Position numbers and translations under genes: made by a program. From Squalus acanthias (Eukaryota), in NCBI GenBank assembly GCA_030390025.1, contig CM059443.1:48670001-48734000 (forward strand): a stretch of 64,000 nt of DNA. The letters are read 5' to 3'. Shown piece after piece: positions 5,791 to 51,100 of the stretch. The notes under the pieces were generated by a model. It did no database searches. It was given only the letters and a program-made list of their open reading frames with translations, and had not been told where the DNA came from. The first letter of the stretch is position 1. Every line of letters begins with the position of its first letter.

Positions 5791-6262
5791 CAATCAGTGT
5801 TGGGAGCCCTGCTGATCTTTCTCCTCTCTAACCCAGGGGCACTGAGTCTGATTGTAGTGTCCTCACTGAGATCAGTTCATTCATTCAATTAATTTTGCAG
5901 AAAAAAATCCTGCTGGACAGATAACACAGTTTAGTTATAGTTTTTAAACAGTGTTTATTGAATGACTTTCAATCACACAAGTTCCATTTTGTGTCTCACA
6001 CAGCAGCGATGCGTTGTTCTATCTAAACAGAGTCCAAGGGGGTGAAATTCATTTCCATCAAAGTCGAAACTGGCGAGGACCAATTTCGGCCCCGAGCATG
6101 TAGCCGTTACATTCTTCAACTGTGGGTTCCCATCGCCCACATCCCGTGTCGGTGAGAGTGGAAATCTCACGTTGAATCTGTCTCCGTGTTTTGTGTCGGT
6201 CGTCACAAAACTTCAGAACAGTCTGTGAAAGCCAAGGAGCTGACGCCAGCGGTTTAATATCA

Positions 6263-7036
6263 TTAGCGGAACATTGGGAGAAGATTTCTCCGCACACAAT
6301 CCTGCGCTTCAAGCAGCCTCAGTGTTACAATCTGTGAAAACACACTTGCATTCGAGGGGGGCCGGTTGCGCACCTGCCGTCCATGGTCCGTGCGGTCTCT
6401 GCCTAGATATCAAGAGAGGAGATCACGTTTGATGGGTTCACTTCCAGTGGGGGACAGATAATGAAAGCGGACTGTCTCGTTACATCAGATAAAGCTCCAG
6501 GAGCTTTAGAACAGACACAGTGTTGGCTGAGAGGATTGTACTGAAAGATTGCAATTACTTACATTTTACTCACTGAATTTCACTTTTGCCTCCATCACTA
6601 AGAATACAGAAAATTAAACATGTGAAGCATCAGTAACATAAGATTCAAACAATAATAAACATCTGTAAATGGATTTGCTATTTTTAACCCCTGGATTTGA
6701 ATCCGTCTCTCTACTCTTCAATTTTCGCTCTCACCATCTCCCATCACTCTCCCTTTCCCTCACTCGCCCTCTATCTTTCCCTCCCTCCTTTCTCTCTCTC
6801 TCTATGTCTGTCTCTCTCACTCTACCCCTCTCTCCATCCCTCCTCCTCTCTCTGGACTGTAAGGGTCATTTAGGAAATGATTTACATTCAGCTTCCTGTG
6901 TCAGCCACACATTAGCCTCCTACAGTTATTAAAGAAATGCAACTGGTAAATGTTTCATTGAATGAGAAAAACTAAACAGAAAGTCTGAATGAAAACTGAG
7001 TGAATCACATCCCTGCCACTACCGATGCTGAGGATC
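6263..7036 (-). CDS. Copy 1 cytoplasmic exons (7023-7036 GSSAS; 6886-6919 EANVWLTQEAE; 6263-6402 CRDRTDHGRQ...LLPMFR*), no tyrosine
   Basis: Homologous to the cytoplasmic exons of copies 2/3 with compatible phases. Donors GTAGTG and GTAAAT are weak. Confidence 0.6.
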
Positions 7037-10000
7037 CTTCATAAAAATAAATAACGGGGGGAACTTACTAGATTTAATATAAGTTTTAAAAACGGTAATG
7101 GAGAAAATAATGGGACTTAAGTTTGACAAATCTCCAGGATCTGATGGCTTCCACCCCAGGGAATTAAAAGAAGCAGGTGAGGAAATTGCAGATACTCTAT
7201 TCATGATCTTCCAAAACTCTCTTGATTCAGGAATTGTCCCCTTGGATTGGAATACTGCCAAATGTTACTCCATTATTTCAGCAGGGTGGGAGAGAGAAAC
7301 CAGGAAATTATAGACCTATTCGTCCAACGTCTGTTGTGGGGAAGTTACTAGAATCTGTTACTGGGGACAGAGCAACTGAGCACTTGGACAAATATGAGTT
7401 GACCAGAGAGAGCCAGCATGGATTGGTAAAGGGTATGTCAGGTCTAACTAACCTTGTTGAATTTTATGAGGAGATCACTAACGTGGTAGATAAGGGAGTG
7501 TACATGAATTTTAGATGGACTTCCAGAAGGCATTCAATAATGTTCCACACAAGACACTCTTAGCAAAAATGAAAGCACATGGCTATTGACAAGGCTAGGG
7601 AATTGGTTAGGTGGTTGGAAGCTGAGAGTAGGGATAATGGGTAATATACTCCAATTGGCAGGATGTGACTACTAGTGTCTCCCAGAGATCTGAACTGGGG
7701 CCTCAGATTTTCACTATATTTATAAAAAAAAGACTTAGATAAAGGAATAGAGCGCCAAATATCCAAGGTTGCTGACAACACGGAGTTAGGTGCCACAGTA
7801 AGTAGTGTTGTCAAGGGATGTTGACAGATTAAGTGAGTTGGCAAAACTGGCAGATGGGGTTCAGTGTAGGGAAGTGTGAGGGGATCCACTTTGGACCGAA
7901 GAAAGATAGGTCAGAATATTTTCTAAATGGTGAGAAGATAGGAACTGTGGAGGAGCCGAGAGATTTCGGGGTCCAAGTACAGAAATCACTAAAAAGCTAA
8001 AAACAGGGACAAAAAATAATTAAAAAGGCGAATAGAAAGTTAGCTTTATCTCAAGTTGGCTGGAATACAAAAGAGCAGATGTTATGCGACAGTTGTATAA
8101 AGCTTAGGTGAGACCACATCTGGAGTGCTGTATTGAGTTCTGGGCACTGCACCTCAGGAAGGACATACTGGCCTTAGAAGGGGTGATACTGGGGCTAAAA
8201 GGGTTAAATTACGAGGACAGGTTGCAGAGACTAGGCTTGTATTCCCTCGAGTATAGAAGATTAAGGGGTGATCTAATTGAGGTGTTTAAGATGATATAAG
8301 GATTTGATAGGGTGGGTAGAGAGAAACTATTTCCTCTGGTGGAGGGGTCTAAAACAAGGCGGCATAACGTTACCCCACTATTCAAAAAGGGGGGTAGGGA
8401 AAAAGCAGGTAATTACAGACCTGTAAGCCTTACATCAGTTGTGGGCAAAATGCTGGAGTCCATCATTAAGGATGAAATAGCGGAGCACTTAGCAAATGGG
8501 GACAGGATAGAACAGAGTCAACATGGATTTACAAAGGGTAAATCGTGCTTGACTAATCTATTGGAATTTTTTGAGGGAGTAACTGGTAAAATAGATGGGG
8601 GAGAGCCAGTAGATGTGGTGTACCTGGACTTCCAAAAGGCCTTCGATAAGGTCCCACATAAAAGATTAGCAGGGAAAATTGAAGCTCATGGGATAAAGGG
8701 GAAAGTATTGACGTGGATAGAGAACTGGCTGTCAGATAGAAAACAGAGAGTTGGAATAAACGGCTCATTTTCTGAATGGCAGGCAGTAACAAGTGGGGTA
8801 CCACAGGGATCTGTCCTGGGTCCCCAGCTGTTCACAATTTACATTAATGACCTGGATCAGGGAGTCGGATGCAGCATTTCCAAATTTGCAGACGACACTA
8901 AACTAGGAGGGGGGGTGGGCTCAGAGGAGGAGACCAGGAAGCTCCAGAGCGATTTGGACAGACTGGGTGATTGGGCGGATAAATGGCAGATGCACTATAA
9001 TGTGGACAAGTGCGAAGTTATCCACCTTGGGTGCAGGAACGGGAGGGCAAATTATTATTTAAATGGCAATAAATTGGGAGAGGGGGAAGTACAGAGAGAC
9101 CTGGGTGTTCTTGTACACCAGTCACTGAAGGCGAGCATGCAGGTGCAACAGGCGGTCAAGAAGGCAAACGGTATGCTGGCCTTCATAGCAAAAGGGTTGG
9201 AATACAGGAACAGGGATACCTTGCTGCAGCTGTACAGGGCACTGGTGAGACCACACCTCGAGTACTGTGTACAGTTTTGGTCGCCTCATCTGAGGAAAGA
9301 TGTTCTTGCCATGGAGGGGGTGCAGCGGCGATTCACCAGGCTGATACCAGGAATGGCGGGATTGACCTATGAGGAGAGACTATGTAGTTTAGGGATGTAC
9401 ACACTGGAGTTTAGAAGATTGAGAGGGGACCTCATAGAAGTGTATAAAATTCTGACAGGTCTAGACAGACTAGATGCAGAAGGAATGTTTCCCTTGGCGG
9501 GTGAGAACAGAACTAGAGGACATAATTTAAGGATAAGGGCTAAAACATTTAGGACAGAAATGAGGGGGAATTTCTTCACTCAGAGGGTGGTGAAACTGTG
9601 GAACTCATTGCCACAGAGGGCAGTGTACGCCAGCTCATTAAATATATTTAAGAGGGAATTAGATATATTTCTACAGGCAAAAGGGGTTAAGGGTTACGGA
9701 GAGAAGGCGGGGATGGGATACTGAATTGGAGGATCAGCCATGATCTCATTAAATGGCGGAGCAGGCTCGAAGGGCCGGATGGCCTACTCCTGCTCCTATC
9801 TTCTATGTATCTATGTATAACCTTAAAATTAGAGCCAGGCACTTTAGGGGTGATGTCAGGAAACACTTCTTCACACAAAGGGTGGTGGAAATCCGGAACT
9901 TGCTCCCCCCAAAAAGCTGTTGAGGCTGAGAGTCAATTGAAAATTTCAGAACTGAGATTGGTAGATGTTTATCAGTTAAGGGTATGACGGCATATGGAAC

Positions 10001-13000
10001 CAAGGCGGGTAAATGGAGTTAGGTCACAGATCAGCAATGATCAAATTGAATGGCGGAACAGGCTCGAGGGGCTGAATGGCCTCCTTCTGTTCCTATGTCG
10101 CTATGGTCACAGTAAATGTGATAAGATCAGAACAATGAATTTAAAAATCATTGTAATAAGTCTGTACTTAAATATAATTTTCCGGATTTAGATCAAACAT
10201 TTTAAAGCTCTTGCTTACCCTTGGCAGCTTGCCGTTTCCTTCGGATTATGCAAAGTGCCCCATCAATGCAAACTAGCACAACCAAGTACAGAACCAAAAC
10301 ACACATACGTATGTCACTGCAGCTGGTGTAAGGACCTGCAGAGGAGAAGCAACATTAAGTTCAGTCTGTGCAATCCCGTGTTATATGTACAGCTGATCAC
10401 ACTGGTTACCTGGGCTGAGGAACAGACATTTCTGGTTAGAATCTGGAATAGTCCAATGGCGAAGGAAGTAAATCAAAGCAACTTATAACGGCTACAAACT
10501 GTACAACTGATCTGGAATCTCTCAGTTTGAATTATTGATATTAAAAGATTCACATCATATTCTAGATTGTATCACTTACTTTGAGTATTTGTACGAGTTA
10601 TGCTGCTGGTCACTGAGGAGATTCCAGATGTTGAGGTGGGGGTGTCTGAAGTCTCTGCACTCGCCTCTGTCACAGTAAGGGAGATGTTTGCTGCAATCTT
10701 CCAGACAGGTTTCCCTGAATCCTGACCGTGGACAGCACAGAGATACCTCCCAGTGTCCACCACATCCGCTGAGTGAATAGTAAGGTTGTGAGACTGGCGT
10801 CTAGCAGTAGGATTGTCTGAGCTTTGGGCAGAGATTCTTTGTGACGACTTTCTGTCCACACAGCAGCGTGTGTTAATTTTTGCCTCATAACCCTCAATGT
10901 GAACAGAGTGCAGACACTTGTTGACGTTTCCAGATCTGATCCAAAACAGAGTGAAAGCGAGGTATTTTGTATTCTCAAACTGGCAGGGTAAAGCCACATT
11001 TGCTCCCTTTGACACTGTCAGCGACCAGGAGTTTTCTTCAGTAGAAAATATTTCATCTGAATCTATAAACAACATTGAAAAGAACCTTTGTTACTAATTA
11101 TTTAGAAGTGCTGTTCCCACATGTTATCCAGCTGTTTGATGTAAGTGTGAGTCTGACTGTAACTAGCTGTATTATCAGCAGTGGAGACAGCAGGCGTGGG
11201 CCAGGGCCAAATCCTTGTTTGGAATATTTGTCTGATTTTCCCACCGTTAGATTAAACATTCCCCAGCTAGAGGCAGATTGTGTAAGAGCAGGAAACACTC
11301 GGGGACTGAGAGCAAGGAGCGATAAGACAGGACAAATAATGAAAGATCGAACACACAAAGGCAAAAGACAGGGGCAGACACTAAAGGACAGAGACAAGGG
11401 GGGGAGACTTCAAACTCGCTTCTCTGTATCTCGATACCTGGGAATTTTATCCACCCCACCCCCCCCCGCCCCGCCCAGATATTTCCCCAATACCTCCCCT
11501 GATACCTCCCCCGATATTGCCCCAGTACACGTACCACTCTGGATTATCACAAAGAACAAGTCGTGGTTTTCACATCCCTCTCCTGACAGTGTGAGCCAGG
11601 ACGGACACTTCGATGATCCTCCTTCTGTGGAATCCTGAGCCGAGCAGGTAAATACCATCGAGTTAAACGTCTTCACATCGAATGTCAGAGACTGAGACTC
11701 CGTTTGTTCTTCATTTAATTTGCATTTTCTACACTCTGGCTTACTCTGCCTGTTTGTCCAATTAGGACTGATATTTTCACAAAATTGCATTTCCTTCTCT
11801 TTATTCTCACATGTATTGTCAATTTCTGCTCCGAGATCAGTGAAGCTGCACAAGGTGACTTCATCCCCAGCACCAGTGGTCACGTTGCACTGCAGAGTGG
11901 TGACATCTCCTGGTCCTCGGGAGAAGAGATAAGTGGATCCTGCAGGGAAAGGGCAGAATCGGATAAAGATAAATAACATTCCACACGGGAAATATCATTA
12001 CACACTCAATGTGACACAAGCCTCTCACAGTAAATGAGCCTAGTTAGACCCCCACCACCCCCTTTACACATTGTGATAGACTGCCCTCCCATTACACAGT
12101 CTGAATCCAGTCCACACCACCCCCTCTCCCTGCCTCCATCACACAGGCCTGGACAGAGATCCCACCCCCACCATAACACATTCTGATCGAGACCTCACCC
12201 CATCCCCATCATAGCCTGAATAGAGACCCCCCACCCTTTCACTGAGCCTGACTACAGTCATACATAGTACATAGGTTGAGGTTATTGGAAGTCAATCATC
12301 TCAGCTCCAGAACATCGCTGCAGGAGTTCCTCAGGGCAGTGTCCAAAGCCCAACCATCTTCAGCTTCTTCATCAATGACCTTCCCTCCATCATGAGGTGA
12401 CACGTGGGACTGTTCACTGATGATTGCACAGTGTTCTGCTCCATTTCCAATTCCTCAGATAATGAAGCAGTCCGTGCCTGCATGCAGCAAGACCTGGACA
12501 ACATCCAGGCTTGGGCTGATAAGTGATAAGTAACAGTCACACCACATAATGACCATCTCCAACAAGAGAGAGCCTAACCACCTGCCCTTGACATTTGATG
12601 GCATTACCATCATCGACTCTCCCACCATTAACATCCCGGGGTCACCATTGACCAGAGACTTAGCTGCAGCAACCACATAAATACTGTGGATACTAGGGCA
12701 GGTCAGAGGCTGGGTACTCTGCGGCAACTGGCTCACCGGCTCCCCAAAACCTTTCCACCACCTATAAGGCACATGTCAGGAGAGTGATGAAATACTCTCC
12801 ACTTACGTGGATGAGTGCAGCTCCAAAAACACTCAGGAAACTCAACACCATCCAGGACAAAGCAGTCCACTTGATCGGCTCCCTATCCGTCCCCTTAAAC
12901 ATTCACTCCCTCCACCACTGGCACACCATGGCTGCAGTGTATACCATCTACATGATAGTACCTCGCCAAGGCTTCTACGGCAGTATCTCCCAAACCCCCG

Positions 13001-14852
13001 ACCTTCACCACCTATAAGGACAAGCGCAGCAGGTGCTTGGGAACACCATCACCTCCAAGTTTCCTTAAAAGTCGCACAACATTCTGACTTGGAAATATAT
13101 TGCTGTTCCTTCATTGTCGCTGGGTCAAAATCCTAGAATTGCCTACCTAACAGCATTGTGGAGAACCTTCACCATTTGGAGTGCAGAAGAAAGGTCAAAC
13201 CCAACTGACCTTCTCAATGGCAACTAGGGATTGGGCAATAAATGCCGGAATTGCCAGTGACACCCACATCCCGAAGAAAGATAAAATAAATATGAAGTAA
13301 TCATCCACTTAATGAGGGAACTTAATTTAAGACGTGGCATTGAATACTGGTTCCTAACTTTCAGGGAGATTATAATAACTGATAATAGGTGTGAGGACAT
13401 TAGTTAGTCCTGTAAAAGGAAAACATATGGGTAAATATTATCTTTTTAGTTGGGGTTTCTGTAGAAGGAGGGAATTAGCTGAAGTTGAATGGTGCAGACC
13501 AGAGAGATATTTATAATTAAAAGTATCACTTGATGGAGAGCAATTATATGTAACAAGAGCCGAATTATTTATAAGGTAATGAAGTAGAGTTATACCAATC
13601 TCGTTAGCCGAATGGAAAAAGAACTCGTTAGTTAGGAAACCAGCTGTTAGCTAAAGTTATCGATAAGGACTCAGTTCAATTAGACTCTCCTTATATGGAG
13701 TTGTTTTTCAATGCAGAAATGTGCAAATTGTCACATATTCGGAGTGAGGGGTAAGTACAAAAAGTGGCAGAGTGTAATCAGTATTTGGATTCGAAGGGGT
13801 TTGATTGGCCTAAAACACTGAACATTAACGCGTTTGAGTCGCCAGCCATCAGCTCTTGTAAGTTCTTGTGGCTCTTTGCTAGAATCAACTCACGGCCTCG
13901 CTCTCCCCACAGTGCTCCTGTATCTTTCACAGCTTCAAATGTTTATCCAATTCTCACTTAAAAGATAGAATCATAGAATCATAGAAAGTTACAGCACGGA
14001 AGCAGGCCATTTCGGCCCATCGTGTCTGCGCCGGCCAACAAAGAGCTATCCAGCCTAATCCCACTTCCCAGCTCTTGGTCCGTAGCCCTGCAGGTTACAG
14101 CATCCCAAGTGCACATCCAAGTACTTTTTAAATGTGGTTAGGGTTTCTGCCTCTACCACCCTTTCAGGCAGTGAGTTCCAGACCCCCACAACCGTCTGGG
14201 TGAAGAAATTCCCATCAAATCCCCTCTAAACCTTCCACCAATTACTTCAAATCTGTGCCCCCTGGTTTTTGACCCCTCTGCTAAGGAAAATAGGTCCTTT
14301 TTGTCCACTTTATCTCGGCCCCTCATCATTTTATACACCTCAATAAGGTCTCCCCTCAGCCTCCTCTGTTCCAAGGAAAACAAACCCAGCCTATCCAGTC
14401 TTTCCTCATAGCTAAGATTCTCTACTCCCGGCAACATCCTTGCAAATCTCCTCTGTACCCTTTCTAGTGCAATTATATCTTTCCTGTAATGTGGTGACCA
14501 GAACTGCACGCAGTACTCTAGCTGAGGCCTAACTAGTGTTTTATACAGTTGATAAGATCCAAAGCTCTCTGCCTCAACCATTCGCTGTGGTAAAGCATTC
14601 TCTGCTCCAACAACATTTCTCCTAACCTCTCTCCTCACTGTCTTAGTGCCATTTTTAAACTGATGACCCATGATTAAACCGTGTTAAAATGCCACAGCAA
14701 GGACTGTGATGCGAGCACATTAAACATATTCACAAGAACACCACTGTTTTATATCCTTATCCTAAGCTGAAGATTAACTGAAAGTATTAATCCTTACCTG
14801 TAACATGTTGGAACAGAAGGAAAAGACCCACAAACACAGCACCGAGCGCCAT
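6263..14852 (-). CDS. IgSF paired-receptor-like gene, copy 1 (putative activating form; about 426 aa, 8 coding exons)
   Basis: Exons 14798-14852, 11535-11939, 10580-11062, 10410-10442, 10219-10335, 7023-7036, 6886-6919 and 6263-6402. All have GT-AG boundaries with compatible phases; total 1281 nt = 427 codons, no internal stop. Encodes signal peptide, two Ig-like domains, TM and basic stop-transfer RRKRQ. AATAAA at 5954-5959 (minus). Confidence 0.8.
7041..10105 (+). mobile_element. Old CR1 with nested younger CR1 (~8369-9816)
   Basis: The decayed RT is interrupted at ggcataac and resumes at ataaccttaaaattagag. The nested copy gives the uninterrupted 470-aa RT ORF and a ctatgtat tail. Confidence 0.9.
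10219..10442 (-). CDS. Copy 1 stalk micro-exon (10410-10442, NSNQKCLFLSP) and TM exon (10219-10335, GPYTSCSDIRMCVLVLYLVVLVCIDGALCIIRRKRQAAK)
   Basis: 33-nt and 117-nt phase 1-1 exons with ttccag/GTAACC and ctcctctgcag/GTAAGC sites; hydrophobic stretch followed by RRKR. Confidence 0.85.
10580..11062 (-). CDS. Copy 1 V-set Ig domain D2 plus Ser/Thr-rich stalk exon
   Basis: G-x-N-V-x-L-P-C, LFWIR, LTIHSADVVDTGRYLC (DxGxYxC V-set motif) and ISLTV. Acceptor gtttatag, donor CAAA|GTAAGT, 483 nt, phase 1-1. Confidence 0.9.
11535..11939 (-). CDS. Copy 1 Ig-like domain D1 exon (Cys-rich, divergent)
   Basis: Acceptor cccctttccctgcag-type tract, donor AGTG|GTACGT, 405 nt, phase 1-1. B-strand-like TLQC and F-strand-like FTC, 9 Cys, no canonical C-strand Trp. 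Confidence 0.8.
12270..13290 (+). mobile_element. Second-family LINE 3' fragment (duplicate at 34100-35120)
   Basis: Same family as 1550-2512. Confidence 0.85.
13965..14670 (-). mobile_element. CR1 3' fragments (duplicate at 35795-36510)
   Basis: atagaatc tail repeats; YKTLVRPQLEYCVQFW. Confidence 0.85.
14798..14852 (-). CDS. Copy 1 leader (signal peptide) exon MALGAVFVGLFLLFQHVT(G)
   Basis: ATG with an in-frame TAG 9 nt upstream, hydrophobic 18-mer and phase-1 donor CAG|GTAAGG. An acceptor ctctttatctcacag before 14918 implies an upstream 5' UTR exon. Confidence 0.85.
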
Positions 14853-25716: not shown

Positions 25717-25967
25717 TCAGGTTTCCTCCATTTTCGCATAAATAGGATTTTTTTCCATTTTTAACAGGCCAGGTCGTGGATCATCTTCCTCCAGCTGGGA
25801 CTGTGTCACCGCGTCTACCGGGCAGCCTATCAAAGAATAAATCTGCTCATTGGACAAAGCAACGGGATCCTCCTTACTGTCCTCTTTGGGCTGTGATTGG
25901 CCGCCTGGTTTGAGTTCAGTAGCTGAAGAGGTTTCAACCTGCCGTCCATGGTCCGTGTGGTCTCTGC
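25717..25967 (-). CDS. Copy 2 terminal cytoplasmic exon B (RDHTDHGRQ...EQIYSLI...NPIYAKMEET*)
   Basis: Acceptor ctctcttaatatctag and a 251-nt open frame to TGA. Same length and frame in copy 3, with synonymous differences. Absent from the ORF track. Confidence 0.8.
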
Positions 25968-28900
25968 CTAGATATTAAGAGAGGAGATCACGTTTGATGG
26001 GTTCACTTCCAGTGGGGGACAGATAATGAAAGTGGACTGTCTCATTATTTGAGATAAAGGTCCAGGAGCTTTAGAACAGACACAGTGTTGACTGAAAGGA
26101 TTATACTGAAAGATTGCAACGACTTACATTTTACTCCCTGGTTTTCAGTTTTGCCTCCATCACTAGGAAAACAGAAAAATAAACATGTGACTACTGAGTA
26201 ACATAAGATTCAAACAATATTAAACCATTGTAAGTGGAGACTAGGTGAGGTCACTTTCTTCCCAGGGCCTGGATTTGAGTCCAGCCCAGACTGAAATTCT
26301 CTCATTCATTTTCTCTCTCTCTGTCTCTCTCTCCCTCTGACTCTCTGATTGTCTCTCCGTCTCTCTTTCTCTCTGTCTCTTTCATTCTCTCTCTTTCACT
26401 GTCTCTCTCTGCCTGACTCTCTCTCTCTGTCTGTCTATCTCACTGTCTCTCTCACTGTCTCTGTCTCTCTCCATTCTCTCTGTCTCTCTGTCTGTGTCTT
26501 TTCCCTGTCTCTATGTCTGTCTCTCTCCCTGTCTCTGTCTGTCTATCTCACTTCTCTTTCGCTGTCTCCCTGTCTCTCTCCATTCTCTCTGCCTCTGTCT
26601 CAGTCTCTTTGTGTCTGTCATTCCCTCCCTGTCTCTATGTCTGTCTCACTATGTCNNNNNNNNNNNNNNNNNNNNNNNNNNNNNNNNNNNNNNNNNNNNN
26701 NNNNNNNNNNNNNNNNNNNNNNNNNNNNNNNNNNNNNNNNNNNNNNNNNNNNNNNNNNNNNNNNNNNNNNNNNNNNNNNNNNNNNNNNNNNNNNNNNNNN
26801 NNNNNNNNNNNNNNNNNNNNNNNNNNNNNNNNNNNNNNNNTTGTCTCCCTCTCTCTCTCTTTGTCTCTCTCACTGTCTTTGCTGTGTGAGCAGTCCTCTC
26901 TGCAATGAGTTTTCACAGTTTCAATCCAGTTCCTTGCCTAAAACTGCGCATCATTCAGTAAAATATTTGGACTAAATTGATCATTATGGTCAGATAAGCC
27001 AAAATATTGTCCTGAGAAAGTTTAATAAAAATAACTTCACACGGGCACAGTGAAAGGAGTTATTCTGATGTTGGGATAAAGGAGCACTATCAGGTCAGAG
27101 TTCAGAGTGCTTTACAAGGCCTCCAGCCATTCTATACCTGACTTAGAACTGTTCGGTTGTGAGATTGGCTGCACAGCCTGGAAATGTTTTATGCTGGGTG
27201 GTGGAATAGATTAGTACGGCCCTTTAATATTTTAGGATCTGCCAAGTCCAGATTACTAGGAATAAAAGTCCTCTTTCTATATCTCCCTGGTCTCTCTCTC
27301 TGTCTGTCTCTGTCGCAATCTCTGTCTGTCTCTGTCTCTTTGTCTTTCTCTGTCTCTTTCTCTCTAAGGGTCCTTGATGAAATGAATTTGGTCATCTCGA
27401 TCCAGTTTGTAGTTCGTGTGAGCCACAGTACAAAACTACCCCTAAGTTGGCACTTTCACTCAAACAGGCCATGAAGTGTGAGAAATGAAATGTCCGAGCT
27501 CCCTCCTGAGTTTGGAGTTGAGGAGCATTGTTGGGACAGTCCAGAGGGAGCTTTATGCTGCACCTAATCTGGAGTGCTCCAAATGTGACTGTGTGCCCAC
27601 AGTGGAAAAGTAACCCATTTGCCAGCATGGGCTCCCCTCACCTTCATTACATTAACAATCTCCGAACCCTCCGTCCCAAAACAAACCCGTGGTCAGTGTT
27701 GAACGCTGCCGGGGCCGACAGCTGTCACTCTGCTTACCCTTTGACCATTGACTCTTCGATCATAGAATCATAGAAGATAGGAGCAGGAGTAGGCCATTCG
27801 GCCCCTCTTAGCCTGCTCCGCCATTCAATGCGATCATGGCTGATCATCCAAATTCAGTACCCTGTCCCTGCTTTCTCCCCATATCCCTTTAGCCTTAAGA
27901 AATATATCGAACTCCTTCTTGAATATATTTAATGAATTGGCCTCTACTGCCTTCTGTGGCAGAGAATTCCACAGGTTCACCACTCTCTGGGTGAAGAAAT
28001 TCCTCTTCATTTCTTTCCTAAATGGCTTACCCCTTATCCTTAGACTGTGACCCCTGGTTCTGGACTCCCCGACCATCGGGAACATCCTTCCTGCATCTAG
28101 TTTGTCCTGTCCTGTCAGAATTTTATAAGTTTCAATGAGATCCCCTCTCATTCTTCTAAACTCCAGCGAGTATAAGTCCAATTGACCCAATCTCTCTTCA
28201 TACGTCATTCCTGCCATCCCAGGTATCAGCCTTGTGAATCTTCGCTGAACTTCTTCCACGGCAAGAACATCCTTCCTCAGATAAGGCAACCAAAACTGCA
28301 CACAGTACTCAAGGTGTCGTCTCACCAAGGCCCTGTACAACTGCAGCAAGACATCCTTGTTCCTGTACTCAAACCCTCTCGCTATGAAGGCCAACATACC
28401 ATTTGCCTTCTTAACCGCCTGCTGCACCTGCATGCTTACCTTCAGCGACTGGTGCACAAGGACACCCAGGTCTCGTTGCACTTCCTCTTCTCCCAATCTA
28501 TTGCCATTCAGATAATAATCTGCCTTTCTGTTTTTGACACCAAAGTGGATAACCTCGCATTTATCCACGTTCTATTGCATCTGCCACGCTTCTGCCCAAT
28601 CACCCAACCTGTCCAAATCATCCTGGAGTTTCTCGGCATCCTCCTCACAGCACACACGCCCACCCAGTTTTGTGTCGTCTGCAAACTTGGAGATATTACA
28701 TCTAGTTCCCTTGTCTAGATCATTAATATATATTGTGAATAGCTGGGGTCCAAGGACCAATCCCTGCGGTACCCCACTAATCACTGCCTGCCACTCGGAA
28801 AAAGACCCGTTTATTCCAACTCTTTGCTTTCTGTCTGCCAACCAGTTCTCTATCCAAGTCAATACCTTGCCCCCAATCCCATGTGCCTTAACTTTACACG

Positions 28901-31900
28901 CTAATCTCTTATGCGGGACCTTATCAAAAGCCTTTTGGAAGTCCAAATACACCACATCCACTGGTTCTCCCTTATCTATTTTACCAGTTACATCCTCAAA
29001 AAATTCCAGTCGATTAGTCAAGCATGATTTACCTTTTGTAAATCCATGTTGACTTTGTCCGATCCTGTCACTGTTTTCAAGTGCTCAGCTATTACATCTT
29101 TTACATCTTGAATAATGGACTCTAGCATTTTCCCCACTACCGATGTCTGTAATTCCCTGTTTTCTCTCTACCACCCTTTTTGAATAGTGGGGTAACATTA
29201 GCTACCCTCCAATCCATGGGTACTGTTCCAGATTCCATCGAATGTTTGAAGATGATCAGCAATGCATCTACTATTTCTAGGGCCACTTCCTTAAGTACCC
29301 TAGGATGTAGATTATCAGGCCCTGGGGATTTATCGGCCTTCAATCCCTTCAATTTCCCTAACACCATTTCCCTACAAATACTGATTTCTTTCAGTTCCTC
29401 CCTTTCATCAGACCCTATGTTCCCCAACATCTCTGGGAGGTTATTTGTGTCCTCCTTTGTGAAGACAGAACCAAATTATGTATTTAATTGGTCTGACATT
29501 TCTTTGTTCCCCATTATAAGTTCCCCTGATTCTGACTGCAAGGGACCTACGCTTGACTTCACCAATCTTTTCCTCTTCACATATCTATAAAAGCTTTTAC
29601 AGTCAGTTTTTATGTTCCCTGTAAGCTTACTCTCATATTCTATTTTCCCCTTCTTAATTAATCCCTTTGTCCTCCTTTGTTGAATCTTAAACTGCTCCCA
29701 ATCCTCAGGGTTACTGCTTTTTCTGGCCAATTTATATGCCCTCTCCTTGGATCTTATCCTATCCCTAATTTCCCTTGTTAGCCACAGTTGAGTCACCCTT
29801 TTTGTTTTATTCTTATGCCAAACTGGGATGAACAAATTCTGTAGTTCGTCCATGCGGTCTTTGAATGTTTGCCATTGCCTATCCACCGTCAACCCTTTGA
29901 GTGACATTCCCCAATCAATCCTACCCAACTCACACCTCATACCATCGTAGTTTCCTTTATTTAAATTCAGGACCCTAGTCTCTGAGTCAACTACTTCACT
30001 CTCCATCCTAATGAAGAATTCTATCATATTATGATCGCTCTGACCCAAGGGGCCTCACACAACAAGATTGCTAATTAATCCTTTCTCATTGCATAATACC
30101 CAGTCTAAGATGGCCTGATCTCTGGTTGGTTCCTCGACATATTGGTCCAGGAAACCATCCCGTAAACACTCCAGGAATTCCTCCTCCATAGTATTGTTAC
30201 TAATTTGGTTAGCCCAATCTATATGTAGATTAAAGTCACCCATGATGACTGCTGTGCCATTATTGCACGCTTCTCTAATTTCCCTTTTAATGCCATCCCC
30301 AACCTCCGCATTACTGTTTGGAGGTCTTTTTATCACTCCCACTAACGTTTTCTGCCCCTTGTTATTTCTCAGTTCAACTCATACAGATTCCACATCATCA
30401 GAGCTAATATCCTTCCTTTCAATTGTGTTAATCCCCTCTTTAACCAGCAATGCTACCCCACCTCCCTTTCCTTTTTGCCTGTCTTTCCTGAATATTGAGT
30501 ACCCTGGATGTTGAGTTCCCAGCCTTGGCCACCCTGGAGCCATGTTTCGGTAATCCCAATCAAATCATATTCGTTTACCTGTATTTGCGCAGCTAATTCA
30601 TCCACCTTGTTCCGAATGCTCCTTGCATTAAGACACAAAGCCTTCAGGCTTGTTTTTTTAACGCTCTTAGACCTATTAGAATTAGTATTTACTGTGGCCA
30701 TGTTTGATTTAACACATTGCTTTCTCTGACTGCCACTTTTGTTTTTCTCCTTCCTATCTTTTGCTTTTATCCTTGTTTCCCTTTCCTCTGTCTCCCTGCT
30801 CAGGTTCCCAACCCCCTGCCATTTTAGTTTAAACCCCCTCCCAGAGCATGAGCAAACACTCCCCCTAGGACATCGGTCCCGGCCCTGCCCAGGTGTAGAC
30901 CGTCCGGTTTGTACTGGTCCCACCTCCCCCAGAACCAGTTCCAATGCCCCAGGAATTTGAATCCCTCCCCCTTGCACCATTCCTCTAGCCACGTATTCAT
31001 TTGAAATATCCTTCTATTTCTACTCTGACTAGCACGTGGCACTGGTAGCAATCCTGAGATTACTACCTTTGAGTTCCTATTTTTTAATTTACCTCCTAAC
31101 TCCCTATATTCTGCTTTTAGGACCTCATCCCGTTTTTTACCTATATCGTTGTTACCTATGTGCACCACGACAATTGGCTGTTCAGCCGCCCCTTCCAAAA
31201 TGCTCTGTAGCCACTCTGAGACACACTTGACCCTTGCACCAGGGAGGCAACATACCATCCTGGAGTCTCGTTTGCGGCTGCAGAAACGCCTATCTATTCC
31301 CCTTACAATAGAATCCCCTATCACTATAGCTCTCCCACTCTTTTTCCTCCCATCCTGTGCAGCAGAACCACCTACGGTGCTAGGAAGTTGGCTGCTGCTG
31401 TCTTCCCCTGATAAGCCATCTCCCTCAACAATATCCAAAGCGGTATATCTGTTTGAGAGGGGGATGGCCACAGGGGACCCCTGCACTACCTGCCTGCGCC
31501 TATTACTCTGCCTGGTGGTCACCCATTCCCTTCCAAACAGTACACATGCTCTGTAGAGTCAGGCTTTGGGCCAGTGCTCTCCATTCCTTCACCAGGCCTT
31601 GGCTGGCTCGATGGCGTTGGAACTCTCGTCACCGAGTACGCAACATGGTCGTTGTCATCGCTCTGATCCCTTCTGGGAACCACAGAGTACGGGAAACCTA
31701 GACAGAAGGACGAGTAGACGATGTGTGCTTTTAGTTTCAACTCTCAAAGGGACAGGCTCGGAAGAGCTGGGCAGTAATTCTAGTCACTTACATTCAGCCA
31801 CCTGTGTCAGCTGCACATCACCAGCCCTACAGTTAGTAAAGAAAAGCAACCTGTAAATGTTCCATGAAATGAGGAAAACTATACAGAAAGTCTGCCCGAA

Positions 31901-34900
31901 AACTGAACGAATCCCATCCCGACCTGGGTCCTGGTGCTGAGGATCCTTCACAACACATGCCATAAGATTGGAAAGGTAAATTTAAAAATCTTTGTAAGGA
32001 GTCTGCACTTCCAATTTTCTAGATTTAGAGCAAACATTTTAAAGCTCTTGCTTACCTTTGGCAGCTTGTCGTTTCCTTCGGATTATGCAAAGTGCCCCAA
32101 CAATGCAAAGTACCCCAACAATGCAAATGATTACAACCGCACACGCTATGGTTACTTTAACAGGTGTGGCAATGACTGGACCTGCAGAGGAGAAGCAACA
32201 TTAAATTCAGTCTGTGCAATCCCGTGTTATATGTACAGCTGATCACACTGGTTACCTGGGCTGAGGAACAGACATTTCCGGTTAGAATCTGGAATAGTGC
32301 AATGGCGAGGGAAGTAAATCAAAGCAACTTATAACGGCTGCAAACTGTACGACTGATCTGGAAACTCTCAGTTTGAATTATTGATATTAAATGATTCACA
32401 TCATATTCTAGATTGTATCACTTACTTTGAGTATTTGTACAAGTAAAGCTGCTGGTCACTGAGGAGATTCCAGATGTTGAGGTGGGGGTGTCTGAAGTCT
32501 CTGCACTCGCCTCTGTCACAGTAAGGGAGATGTTTGCTGCAATCTTCCAGACAGGTTTCCTTGAATCCTGACCGCGGACAGCACAGAGATACCTCCCAGT
32601 GTCCACCACATCCGCTGAGTGAATAGTAAGGTTGTGAGACTGGCGTCTTGCAGTAAGATTGTCTGAGCTTTGGGCAGAGATTCTTTGTGACGACTTTCTG
32701 TCCACACAGCAGCGTGTGTTAGAATGTGCCTCATAATCCTCAATGTGAACAGAGTGCAGACACTTGTTGATGTTTCCAGATCTGATCCAAAACAGAGTGA
32801 AAGCGAGGTTTTTTGTATTCTCAAACTGGCAGGGTAAAGTCACATTTTCTCCCTTTGACACTGTCAGCGACCAGGAGTTTTCTTCAGTAGAAAATATTTC
32901 ATCCGAATCAATAAACAACATTGAAAAGAACATTTGTTACTAATTATTTAGAAGTGCTGTTCCCACATGTTATCCAGCTGTTTGATGTAAGTGTGAGTCT
33001 GTCTGTAACTAGCTGTATTATCAGCAGTGGAGACAGCAGGCGTGGGCCAGGGCCAAATCCTTGTTTGGAATATTTGTCTGATTTTCCCACCGTTAGATTA
33101 AACATTCCCCAGCTAGAGGCAGATTGTGTAAGATCAGGAAACACTCGGGGACTGAGAGCAAGGAGCGAGAAGACAGGACAAATAATGAAAGATCGAACAC
33201 ACAAAGGCAAAAGACAGGGGCAGACACTAAAGGACAGAGACAAGGGGGGGGGGGGGGGAAGACTTCAAACTCGCTTCTCTGTATCTCGATACCTGGGAAT
33301 TTTATCCCCCCCACCCCCCCAGATACTTCCCCGATCCCTCCCCCGATATTGCCCCAGTACACGTACCACTCTGGATTATCACAAAGAACAAGTCGTGGTT
33401 TTCACATCCCTCTCCTGACAGTGTGAGCCAGGACGGACACTTCGATGATCCTCCTTCTGTGGAATCCTGAGCCGAGCAGGTAAATACCGTCGAGTTAAAC
33501 GTCTTCACATCGAATGTCAGAGACTGAGACTCCGTTTGTTCTTCATTTAATTTGCATTTTCTGCACTCTGGCTTACTGTTTGTCCAATTAGGACTGATAT
33601 TTTCACAAAATTGCATTTCCTTCTCTTTATTCTCACATGTATTGTCAATTTCTGCTCCGAGATCAGTGAAGCTGCACAAGGTGACTTCATCCCCAGCACC
33701 AGTGGTCACGTTGCACTGCAGAATGGTGACATCTCCTGGTCCTCGGGAGAAGAGATAAGTGGATCCTGCAGGGAAAGGGCAGAATCGGATAGAGTTAAAT
33801 AACATTCCACACAGGAAAGATCATTAAACACTCAATCTGACACAAGCCTCTCACAGTAAATGAGCCTAGTGAGACCCCCACCACCCCCTTTACACATTGT
33901 GATAGACTGCCCTCCCATTACACAGTCTGAATCGAGTCCACACCACCCCCTCTCCCTGCCTCCATCACACAGGCCTGGACAGAGATCCCACCCCCACCAT
34001 AACACATTTTGATCGAGACCTCACCCCCCATCCCCTTCATAGCCTGAATAGAGACCCCCCCACCCTTTCACTGAGCCTGACTACAGTCATACATAGTACA
34101 TAGGTTGAGGTTATTGGAAGTCAATCATCTCAGCTCCAGGACATCGCTGCAGGAGTTCCTCAGGGCAGTGTCCAAGGCCCAACCATCTTCAGCTGCTTCA
34201 TCAATGACCTTCCCTCCATCATGAGGTGACACGTGGGACTGTTCACTGATGATTGCACAGTGTTCTGCTCCATTTCCAATTCCTCAGATAATGAAGCAGT
34301 CCGTGCCTGCATGCAGCAAGACCTGGACAACATCCAGGCTTGGGCTGATAAGTGATAAGTAACAGTCACACCACATAATGACCATCTCCAACAAGAGAGA
34401 GCCTAACCACCTGCCCTTGACATTTGATGGCATTACCATCATCGACTCTCCCACCATTAACATCCCGGGGTCACCATTGACCAGAGACTTAGCTGCAGGA
34501 ACCACATTACTACTGTGGATACTAGGGCAGGTCAGAGGCTGGGTAGTCTGCGGCAAGTGGCTCACCTGACTCCCCAAAGCCTTTCCACCACCTATAAGGC
34601 ACATGTCAGGAGAGTGATGAAATGCTCTCCACTTACGTGGATGAGTGCAGCTCCAAAAACACTCAGGAAACTCAACACCATCCAGGACAAAGCAGTCCAC
34701 TTGATCGGCTCCCTATCCGTCCCCTTAAACATTCACTCCCTCCACCACTGGCACACCATGGCTGCAGTGTGTACCATCTACATGATAGTACCTCGCCAAG
34801 GCTTTTACGGCAGTATCTCCCAAACCCCCGACCTTCACCACCTATAAGGACAAGGGCAGCAGGTGCTTGGGAACACCATCACCTCCAAGTTTCCTTAAAA

Positions 34901-47940: not shown

Positions 47941-48191
47941 TCAGGTTTCCTCCATTTTAGCATAAATAGGATTTTCTTCCATTTTTAACGGGCCAGGTCG
48001 TGGATCATCTTCCTCCAGCTGGGACTGTGTTACCGCGTCTACCGGGCAGCCTATCAAAGAATAAATCTGCTCATTGGACAAAGCAACGGGATCCTCCTTA
48101 CTGTCCTCTTTGGGCTGTGATTGGCCGTCTGGTTTGAGTTCAGCAGCTGAAGAGGTTTCAACCTGCCGTCCATGGTCCGTGTGGTCTCTGC
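47941..48191 (-). CDS. Copy 3 terminal cytoplasmic exon B (QIYSLI, PIYAKM)
   Basis: 251-nt open frame conserved with copy 2. Confidence 0.8.
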
Positions 48192-51100
48192 CTAGATATT
48201 AAGAGAGGAGATCACGTTTGATGGGTTCACTTCCAGTGGGGGACAGATAATGAAAGTGGACTGTCTCGTTACTTGAGATAAAGGTCCAGGAGCTTTAGAA
48301 CAGAAACAGTGTTGACTGAGAGGATTATACTGAAAGATTGCAACGACTTACATTTTACTCCCTGGATTTCAGTTTTGTCTCCATCACTAAGAAAACAGAA
48401 AATTAAAACATGTGAATAATGAGTAACATAAGATTCAAACAATATCAAACCATTGTAAGTGGAGACTAGATTAGCTCACTTTCTCCCCAGAGCCTGGATT
48501 TCAGTCCAGCCCAGACTGAAATTCTCTCATTCATTTTCTCTCTCTCTGTCTCTCTCTCTCTCTCTCTGTCTCTCCGACTCTCGTTCTCCCTNNNNNNNNN
48601 NNNNNNNNNNNNNNNNNNNNNNNNNNNNNNNNNNNNNNNNNNNNNNNNNNNNNNNNNNNNNNNNNNNNNNNNNNNNNNNNNNNNNNNNNNNNNNNNNNNN
48701 NNNNNNNNNNNNNNNNNNNNNNNNNNNNCGTCTGTGTCTCTCACTGTCTCTGTCTCTCTCTCTGTCTCTCTCTCTCTGTCTCTCTCTCTTTGTGTCTCTG
48801 TCTCTCTGTCATTGTCTCTCTGTCCCTATCTCTTTCTCTCTTGCTTTGTCTCTCTCTCTCTTTCTATCTTTGCTATGTGAGCAGTCCTCTCTACAATGAG
48901 TTTTCACAGTCCCAATCCAATTCCTTGCCTAAAACTGTCCATCATTCAGTAAAATATTTGGACGAAATTGATCATTATCGTCAAAATACGCCAAAATATT
49001 GTCCTGACAAAGTGTAAAAGAAAATAACTTCACACGGGCACAGTGAAAGGAGCTATTCTGATATTGGGATAAAGGAGCACTATCAGGTCAGAGGGCAGAG
49101 TGATTTACACGGCCTCCAGCCATTCTATACCTGACTTAGAACTGTTCGGTTGTGAGATTGGCTGCACAACCTGGAAATGTTTTGTGCTGGGTGGTGGAAT
49201 AGATTAGTACGGCCCTTTCATATTTTAGGATCTGTTCTCAAATCAAGTCCAGAATATTGGGAATAAAAGTCTCTCTCTGTGCCTCTATTACTGTCTGTCT
49301 GTCCCTGTCTCTTTGTCTTTCTCTGTCTCTTACTCTCGAAGGGTCCTTGATGAAATAAGTTTAGTCATCTCGTTCCAGTTTGTAGCTCGTGTGAGCCACA
49401 GTACAAAACTACCGCTAAATTAGCACTTTCACTCAAACAGGCCATGAGGTGTGAGAAGTGAAATGTCCGAGCTCCCTCCTGAGTTTGGAGTTGAGGAGCA
49501 TTGTTGGGACAGTCCAGAGGGAGCTTTACGCTGCACCTAATCTGGAGTGCTCCAAATGATACTGTGTGGCCACAGTGGAAAAGTAATCCATTTGCAGAGT
49601 GGGCTCCCCTCACCTTCATTACATTAACAATCTCCGAACCCTCCATCCCAAAACAAACCCATGGTCAGTGTTGAACGTTGCCGGGGCCGACAGCTGTCAC
49701 TCTGCTTACCCTTTGACCATTGACTCTTCGATCAAACAGTACACATGCTCTGTAGAGTCAGACTTTGGGCCAGTGCTCTCCATTCCTTCACCAGGCCTTG
49801 GCTGGCTCGATGGCGTTGGAACTCTCGTCACCGAGTACGCAACATGGTCGTTGTCATCGCTCTGATCCCTTCTGGGAACCACAGAGTACGGGAAACCTAG
49901 ACAGAAGGACGAGTAGACGATGTGTGCTTTTAGTTTCAACTCTCAAAGGGACAGGCTTGGAAGAGCTGGGCAGTAATTCTAGTCACTTACATTCAGCCAC
50001 CTGTGTCAGCTGCACATCACCAGCCCTACAGTTCGTAAAGAAAAGCAACCTGTAAATGTCCCATTAAATGAGGAAAACTATACAGAAAGTCTGCCCGAAA
50101 ACTGAACAAATCCCATCCCTACCTGGGTCCTGGTGCTGAGGATCCTTCACAACACATGCCATAAGATTGGAAAGATAAATTTAAAAGTCTTTGTAAGGAG
50201 TCTGCACTTACAATTTTCTAGATTTAGAGCAAACATTTTAAAGCTCTTGCTTACCTTTGGCAGCTTGTCGTTTCCTTTGGATTATGCAAAGTGCCCCAAC
50301 AATGCAAAGTACCCCAACAATGCAAATGATCACAACCGCACACGCTATGGCTACTTTCACAGGTGTGGCAGTGTCTGGGCCTGCAGAGGAGAAGCAACAT
50401 TAAGTTCAGTCTGTGCAATCCCATGTTATATGTACAGCTGATCACACTGGTTACCTGGGCTGAGGAACAGACATTTCCGGTTAGAATCTGGAAAAGTGCA
50501 ATGGCGAAGAAAGGAAATCGAACCAACTTTTAATGGGTACAAACTGGACAACTGATCTGGAATCTATCAACTTTAATTTTTTTTATTCATTCATGGGATG
50601 TGGGCGTCATTGACAAGGCCAACATTTATTGCCCATCCCTAATTGCCCTTGAGAAGGTGGTGGTGAGCTGCTTTCTTGAACCGCTGCAGTCCATGTGGTG
50701 AAGTTACTCCCACAGTGCTGTTAGGGAAGGAGTCCCAGGATTGTGAGCCAGCGACGATGAAGGATCGGCGATGTACTTCTGAGTCAGGATGGTGTGTGAC
50801 TTGGAGGGCAACTTGGAGATGATGGTGTTCCCATGAGCCTGCTGCCCTGTCTTTCTAGGTGGTAGAGGTCACGGGTTTGGGAGGTGCTGCCGAAGAAGCT
50901 TTGGCGAGTTGCTGCAGTGCATCTTGTAGCTGGTACACACTGCAGCCAAGGTACGCCAGTGGTGGAGGGAGTGAATGTTTAAGATGTGGATGGGGTGCCA
51001 ATCAAGCAGGCTGCTTTGTCCTGGATGGTGTCGAGTGTCTTCAGTGTTGTTGGAACTGCACTCATCGAGGCAAGTGGAGAGTATTCCATCACACTCCTTA

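Follow-up and report, generated by a model that had tools for sequence, protein, structure and literature searches.

Paired receptors such as KIR, SIRP and Siglec combine homogenised ectodomains with two kinds of transmembrane (TM) segment and tail. For activating receptors, the available excerpts of PMC13107469 give two modes of assembly on FcR-gamma/CD247 dimers. In the first, used by CD89 and assumed for NKp30 and NKp46, an Arg at the top of the TM, which is the known signature of gamma/zeta coupling, sits on the Asp pair of the dimer; in the second, used by CD16A, an FxxDT motif low in the helix binds the adaptor Tyr and Thr. Clients of DAP12 carry a central Lys, according to the same excerpts. 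The parts available of PMC6557307, PMC4536121 and PMC2413239 describe NxxR, a DYT start and an acidic C-terminal TM end as LRC-type features, and PMC2413239 gives (M/L)Fxx(D/N)TxL as the Fc-receptor TM motif. Note that, in these same parts, NxxR TMs are used by several unrelated families, including the Xenopus FCRL and SLAM receptors, and that the "invariable Asp at -2" of PMC6557307 clashes with that paper's own NxxR. The LRC neighbours named there are TTYH1, LENG8, RPS9 and others. As for cartilaginous fish, paired MDIRs have been described in skate, in an article whose excerpts also give WCR in strand C and FTV in strand E as CD300 motifs (PMC3031540), and a 2014 survey of shark genomes, in the portion available, reports no FcR-gamma, FcR or LRC genes (PMC4016189).

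The gene analysed here, copy 1, lies in a window of 64,000 nucleotides (the whole stretch of DNA studied) of the Squalus acanthias genome. Our results suggest, with a probability of about 0.7 based on sequence and analogy, that copy 1 represents the activating side of an old family of paired receptors in sharks and would couple through a membrane Arg to FcR-gamma or CD247, a binding that we infer from the features described below. Its charged TM exon, the object of this study, lies on the minus strand at 10219..10335 (117 nt, AG/GT ends, phase 1-1), with the reading frame starting at 10336/10333. The earlier note had these coordinates exactly right, and the peptide it gave is indeed encoded on the minus strand, except that the first residue is Ser and not Gly, because the V exon completes the split codon. 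Its reading of CIDGAL in copy 1 against CIVGAL in the window paralogs was likewise borne out.

The remaining exons of copy 1 are all on the minus strand. A signal-peptide exon (14798..14852, 55 nt from the ATG to a GT donor) was located by tblastn of shark homologs and by its open frame; its junction with the following exon is predicted, not taken from reads. This is followed by the Cys-rich exon D1 (11535..11939, 9 Cys), which has no Pfam family and only weak V-type look-alikes, and by exon D2 (10580..11062), which encodes a V-set Ig domain and a Ser/Thr stalk (Pfam V-set, E 8.3e-8; V-type folds with the structure model and Foldseek). D1 is spliced to D2 in 4/4 runs, and a 33-nt exon-like piece with AG/GT ends (10410..10442) is left out of the spliced contigs seen. 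The TM exon is joined straight to a tail exon carrying the stop (6563..6597), as seen in loose contig ends of three runs; this exon is read in a frame that differs from that of the inhibitory copies, and the whole tail has 18 residues and no Tyr. Between both, at 6882..7041, the first two tail exons known from the inhibitory copies survive as a decayed remnant of about 80% identity. The last exon (6048..6410) keeps 39 shared bases and continues with unlike sequence, which replaces the part for the two last Tyr motifs. The five-exon model is open over 363 codons and the contigs show the splicing D1-V-TM-tail; copy 1 encodes a type I receptor of 363 residues, whose membrane helix is charged and whose tail of 18 residues is free of Tyr. 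We rejected the contigs over 6048-6360 as proof that the last exon is expressed, because three inhibitory copies have the same sequence about 2.1 kb downstream, and at 6360, the end of that copy, the best contig breaks off. We also observed that transcript and paralog differences bunch in short stretches of the V domain (window 10876-10882 and 10956-11002), as for a diversifying ligand site.

The charged exon is real and not a sequencing error, a possibility raised in the earlier note. Four of the 16 full-length TM-exon matches in the genome are identical, charged 117-nt copies; over 10219-10333, which includes the Arg and Asp codons, 0 differences were seen in the contigs of X7 and X10, two runs of one study on organism A, and likewise in those of X8, from another study on organism B, where the cover comes in two overlapping pieces. 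In X7, X10 and X8 the intron to the V exon is skipped (CT..AC ends) and the sequence then continues in the exon at 6597. Cover of the TM exon comes from 3 of 4 runs (2 studies, 2 organisms), the DNA run X5 having no contig there. None of the runs is recorded as RNA, and their RNA nature rests on the spliced joins.

Hydropathy, on which the membrane placement is based, gives M10-I30 as the best 21-residue window of the copy 1 helix. As the earlier note had supposed, the Arg and the Asp would belong to the TM: Arg9 would stand on its outer edge and Asp24 within its lower half. The Arg (R, 10307..10309, CGT) aligns with CCT or TCT codons in the 108-nt uncharged paralogs. Four residues ahead of it, a Cys predicted to lie outside the membrane (10319..10321) is found in 8/8 activating helices. 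An activating-specific Tyr at R+7 (10286..10288) shares the helix face of the Arg, and the Asp at R+15 (10262..10264, GAT) corresponds to a GTT Val in the paralogs and to D, N or H in the orthologs. On a helical wheel, Arg, Tyr and Asp stand at 0, -20 and +60 degrees, all within 80 degrees. The chance of Y, T, I and M at the given offsets from an anchored Arg is about 1e-6, a figure that assumes rough generic residue frequencies and uses a motif chosen post hoc that is complete in only one of the eight orthologous helices. Against solved structures, the TM exon gave one match, at chance level (E 0.51).

We next consider the other sharks. Of 28 shark proteins in the ortholog set, 7 have a charged helix and a short tail and 18 a long Tyr tail, with no overlap; the remaining three have no TM or are cut-off uncharged models. 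The seven come from Heptranchias, Heterodontus, Pristiophorus, Mustelus, Scyliorhinus, Hemiscyllium and Stegostoma, and together with copy 1 they make eight helices with the common pattern C-x3-R-x6-Y-x5-C-x-[DNH]-G, of which the first part, C-x3-R-x6-Y, was found in 0 of 100 other proteins compared. Note that charged helices were first spotted by eye among short-tailed TM proteins (7/8 of these) and then gathered by the pattern, so the 8/8 at its columns, the Arg included, is partly by construction. Three columns that are not part of the pattern are also uniform in 8/8, with Pro at R-8, Leu at +4 and Val at +5. At the other positions the helices vary: R-7 is Tyr in four, Asp in two and Cys in two, R-6 is Thr in four, R-1 is Ile in 2/8 and R+1 is Met in 4/8. 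The conservation of R and D, which the earlier note proposed to check, was confirmed in part, since the Arg and a polar residue 15 positions lower are kept and the Asp itself only in 5/8; R+15 is Asn in one helix and His in two, polar rather than acidic. Both His forms belong to carpet sharks and have a short, atypical lower helix, so they may not be intact membrane forms. The Arg was absent from all nine uncharged shark TMs compared.

The V-domain and TM trees differ. In the V-domain tree (15 rows; the Heterodontus inhibitory model, with no full V, was left out), activating and inhibitory members pair by species in 7/7 species with both, with support of 92-100. In the TM tree (16 rows, 35 columns), the sequences split by type, 8 vs 8, with support 99/100, and the activating side has shorter branches than the inhibitory one; because the alignment is short, only the type split is trusted. 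A V domain that sorts by species and a TM that sorts by type is the pattern of an old paired-receptor system. The Heptranchias activating model (P0002) shows D1-D2 twice, and is either a four-domain receptor or two fused gene models.

The dogfish genome itself shows the same linkage of charge with tail loss. The window is part of a tandem array with units of about 22 kb; the genome has 21 TM-region matches (16 full-length), which fall on one contig in two clusters with 1.6 Mb between them. Both clusters have long stretches in common, at 97-99% (on G000:C19, blocks of 10-21 kb between 48.64-48.81 Mb and 50.38-50.52 Mb), so some copies may be haplotype or segmental duplicates. Besides the four charged TM exons, 12 are uncharged and have 108, 126 or more bases through an 18-nt repeat. 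Both other copies in the window are of this second type and also on the minus strand: copy 2 has a 126-nt uncharged TM exon with the 18-nt internal duplication (32056..32181) and a last exon with the tyrosine motifs IYSL and IYAK (25720..25975), and copy 3 an uncharged TM exon (50255..50380) and a last exon with tyrosine motifs (47944..48199). The long Tyr exon is missing in 4/4 charged copies and kept in 12/12 uncharged ones; the last Tyr exon follows 11/12 uncharged copies (2 partial) and 0/4 charged. In the four charged copies this last exon is broken after 39 bases and continues with sequence that three uncharged copies carry 2052-2070 bases further down, which suggests a deletion. The tail of the Heterodontus activating model resembles that of copy 1 (E 0.001), so this event may be old. 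The D2 exons, compared in 12 copies, show 92-100% identity (99% for one charged against two uncharged) and no grouping by TM type. As in other paired receptors, near-identical ectodomains are thus found both with a charged TM and short tail and with an uncharged TM and Tyr motifs, although the motifs of the uncharged copies (IYSL, IYAK, VYCL, VAYSV) fit the ITIM consensus only loosely.

Several units of the array deserve separate mention. Some on G000:C19 lack D1 and most of D2. In copy 2, the long Tyr exon (window 27735-31697) is split after 164/190 bases by a LINE-like insert of about 3.8 kb, and the copy at G000:C19:50499153 is split at the same point; copies with this split may be disrupted. 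One uncharged TM exon (L009, G000:C19:48646055-48646407) has a CAC acceptor and three 18-nt repeats beside an N run, and its last exon was not found. Another (L014, G000:C19:48782609-48782942) has its first ten bases of the charged type, likely a conversion tract. LINE-like reverse transcriptase fragments fill most introns and spacers (e.g. window 8300-9815), and beyond the second cluster there is a retroelement-like stretch (L061) that carries domains for reverse transcriptase, RNase H and integrase. The array is flanked by an ICE2/NARG2 exon and a PSMA4 exon (L024:1-300 and L042:5103-5375), and none of the LRC neighbours was present among the 101 of 581 candidate flank ORFs scanned. ICE2/NARG2 and PSMA4 we take to lie at human 15q22-25, in a paralogy group with 1q21-23, the site of the Fc receptor genes.

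The ectodomain also points to a family of its own. It consists of the Cys-rich D1 (9 Cys, no family) and the V-set D2, on two extracellular exons, with no CDR3 proline motif. A profile search of 1.84 billion representatives gave 80 matches at E up to 0.001, of which 30 were identified; 28 of these are named by their source, all as uncharacterized, hypothetical or generic. Their hosts are whale shark, sturgeon, gar, teleosts, lungfish, amphibians, turtle, lizards, alligator, kiwi and echidna, with one weak mollusc match, likely due to chance, and no therian mammal among the 30 of 80. The non-shark members mostly have an uncharged TM and a Tyr tail. A few carry an Arg in the upper TM and short tails, namely P0074 and P0116 (Xenopus), P0096 (Hyperolius), P0065 (Bombina) and P0072 (catfish), with one NxxR context; these are possibly independent activating forms, or truncated models. 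Solved-structure and Foldseek searches returned generic Ig/V-type neighbours only (TCR alpha, PD-1, ROBO); the matches listed (V-set and D1) include no LRC chain, and CD300 and pIgR chains are missing from the 60 best solved-structure matches listed. The structure model, made from 12 sequences, has a mean pLDDT of 49 and an unusable D1, and protein-atlas searches with the family gave V-set clusters and unnamed clusters only. Among the listings of word searches in an open-access library, no prior description of the family was found.

The earlier note had seen in copy 1 both an LRC-type YT-x4-IRM motif and the TM Asp motif of CD16 and FceRI, and neither label survives the comparison with the other sharks. 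The full YT-x4-IRM string is present in one of the eight helices and the YT pair at R-7/R-6, preceded by Pro, in three; uncharged forms have it too, and PYT also opens uncharged ITIM-type TMs (P0005, L014). The Asn of NxxR is replaced, as the earlier note had remarked, and NxxR occurs in 0/8 helices (Ser in seven, Thr in one). An Arg near the N-terminal end of the TM, as in LRC receptors, is found in 8/8 helices, being part of the selecting pattern, and the shark helices end in Arg/Lys-rich sequence, not in the acidic C-terminal end. D or N at R-2 in 6/8 is a weak point in favour of an LRC reading. As for the Fc-receptor motif, FxxDT and (M/L)Fxx(D/N)TxL are both found in 0/8, the position of the Asp is Asn or His in 3/8, and the polar residue alone matches. 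By sequence, then, the LRC and Fc-receptor labels fail their own definitions, and copy 1 is in neither family.

How the charged exon aligns depends on the paralogs used. Aligned by MAFFT to the 126-nt paralogs of the window, the copy 1 TM exon shows gaps of 8 nt and 1 nt and its upper half looks frameshifted; the 18-nt repeat of these paralogs is missing in most other sharks. With the 108-nt uncharged exons, the alignment is gapless from the right, with a Val GTT changed to Asp GAT and a Pro CCT to Arg CGT. The diverged half then matches at 25-27 of 54 bases in frame, the best of 22 offsets, with codon-shuffle p values of 6e-4 and below 2e-5 (0 of 50000). Gapped scores are higher with the 126-nt paralogs (133-138, vs 113-116 for the in-frame 108-nt alignment). 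The lower half and the splice sites are near-identical to those of an uncharged paralog exon. We set aside a recent frameshift as origin of the motif, given the same motif in other sharks and the in-frame 108-nt alignment; an ancient frameshift may have contributed to the upper helix. With or without such a frameshift, the exon descends from a TM exon of its own family. The charged helix probably arose from it by substitutions, a single time, in a common ancestor of the shark lineages sampled. This derivation favours convergence with LRC, and the likeness of the shark helix to LRC helices is probably convergent. Deep conservation from LRC, one of two origins offered in the earlier note, is unlikely for a helix that is an in-frame relative of the family's uncharged TM.

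The genome has candidate partners. Two TM exons of the zeta family came up in a Pfam search, each on its own contig: one FcR-gamma-like (G000:C1222:25571-25654, L063; E 1.3e-11 for FcR-gamma vs 2.7e-9 for zeta), of which the TM exon alone was examined, and one CD247-like (G000:C5:143156198-143156284, L062; E 1e-11 for CD3 zeta vs 1.5e-8). Both keep the Asp, Tyr and Thr. The proposal that copy 1 is an activating-type member is therefore upheld by the conserved Arg and polar residue, the lost Tyr tail and the presence of FcR-gamma-like and CD247-like adaptors with a TM Asp. Since it is a spliced gene with a Tyr-free tail whose membrane Arg and lower polar residue are common to seven other genera, copy 1 is likely the activating twin, and by analogy it probably works like an Arg-type client of FcR-gamma/CD247. 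Its top Arg would dock on the paired Asp residues of a dimer of FcR-gamma or CD247, as in CD89, NKp30 and NKp46. The Tyr at R+7 and the D/N/H at R+15, which lie on the same helix face, may add a second contact by hydrogen bonding, possibly with Tyr/Thr of the adaptor; Asn and His at R+15 argue for a hydrogen bond over a salt bridge. Counted from the first cytosolic basic residue, the receptor Asp (-7) would be near the adaptor Thr (-5), so that the two contacts may be compatible. From the first mode the shark helix has the Arg, from the second only the polar residue. Less likely than not, but conceivable on the analogy with CD89 for the Arg on the Asp pair and with CD16A for the D/N/H bond to the adaptor Thr, is that a helix with this dual grip has been kept since before the main shark lineages split.

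Copy 1 might do without an adaptor, as a tail-less decoy or homodimer that competes with its inhibitory twins for ligand; in that case the Cys at R-4, the Tyr and the D/N/H would drive self-association of the helix or its retention in the ER. We consider this unlikely. The invariant extracellular Cys and the same-face polar residues would suit it, as would the two observations that speak against coupling, namely that the Arg is at the very edge of the hydrophobic stretch, where it could be a plain interface residue, and that neither published adaptor motif is complete. However, a decoy has no need of an Arg fixed in 8/8 helices and absent from uncharged TMs, and the shorter branches of the activating TMs indicate a conserved partner surface. 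Another way of reading the same residues is that the Arg couples to a different adaptor, DAP10 or DAP12, or the Asp to a shark partner with a basic TM residue. DAP10 is the partner of NKG2D, and where one chain has an acidic TM residue, its partner usually has a basic one. NKG2D itself uses a TM Arg (PMC13107469, in excerpt). We judge this quite improbable: copy 1 lacks the central Lys that those excerpts give for DAP12 clients, the Asn and His tolerated at R+15 argue against a salt bridge, and for DAP10, a short, split gene, the best Pfam match in the genome (E 0.75, with a stop) is under the cut-off.

That the helix is truly homologous to the LRC NxxR exon, whether by inheritance or by transplantation, is very improbable in our view. 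It would explain why Tyr at R-7, Thr at R-6 and Met at R+1, each in 4/8 helices, occur on both sides of the shark tree; the DYT start and the "invariable Asp at -2" in the available text of PMC6557307, with D/N at -2 in 6/8 sharks, agree with it, and so does the occurrence of NxxR TMs in several unrelated families. Against it, R-3 is never Asn, the exon joins a lower half and splice sites near-identical to those of an uncharged paralog to an upper half alignable in frame, PYT opens uncharged TMs too, the ectodomain is not LRC-like, and the flanking ICE2/NARG2 and PSMA4 are not among the neighbours named in the available part of that paper. There is next to no chance that the motif is an artefact, be it that the sequence is wrong, that a recent frameshift was compensated or that the gene is a pseudogene. 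The 8-nt and 1-nt MAFFT gaps could be taken that way, and the shifted frame equals copy 2 at 5/10 residues. But it is opposed by the four identical copies in the genome, by spliced contigs of two organisms that show no difference, by a model open over 363 codons and by the presence of the motif in seven other genera, and the spliced contigs and the ortholog motif refute it.

As far as the excerpts cited go, paired receptors, Arg-based adaptor coupling and the paired MDIR family of skate were already known. New are the receptor family and its helix, which departs from both published assembly motifs and is nevertheless better conserved than the inhibitory one. In contrast with what the available portion of the 2014 survey reports (PMC4016189), the Squalus acanthias genome has an FcR-gamma-like exon and a candidate client. 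If true, the dual grip would be a third way of assembly on FcR-gamma/CD247, in an unnamed family of all jawed vertebrates, and FcR-gamma would have had paired-receptor clients earlier than Fc receptors and LRC.

Finally, how does copy 1 compare with the known systems? With the LRC activating receptors (LILRA, PIR-A, CD89/FCAR, NKp46, GPVI, OSCAR) it has in common the top-of-TM Arg, the short tail and inhibitory paralogs, and some shark helices match their Tyr/Thr at R-7/R-6. It differs from them in a helix without Asn at R-3 and with an invariant Cys at R-4, a low extra polar residue and a basic TM end, in an ectodomain made of the Cys-rich D1 and a V-set, and in its gene neighbours. CD16A, CD64 and FceRI-alpha have an Asp/Asn low in the TM as the shark helices do, the Asp of copy 1 being 7 residues ahead of the first cytosolic basic residue. 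Unlike in these classical Fc receptors, there is no Phe at -3 (a Val/Ile/Ser region), Gly replaces Thr at +1 in 8/8 and His is allowed; moreover, CD16A has no TM basic residue, unlike the shark helix, and the ectodomains are unrelated beyond generic Ig. The MDIR/CD300/NILT receptors are, like the shark genes, a multigene activating/inhibitory V-type family of cartilaginous fish (skate; PMC3031540, in excerpt). The motifs described in those excerpts set the two apart, strand C being FWIR and not WCR in the shark protein and strand E lacking FTV. The CD28/PD-1 family of sharks also joins a V-set to tails with Tyr motifs, and PD-1 is among the weak sequence and fold neighbours; its members, as excerpted from PMC11599192, have a single extracellular V, CDR3 proline motifs and other synteny blocks, whereas the family of copy 1 has two domains and no such motif. 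Compared with KIR, SIRP and Siglec, what distinguishes the shark system is one activating TM lineage across all the shark orders sampled, in a family that has no name.
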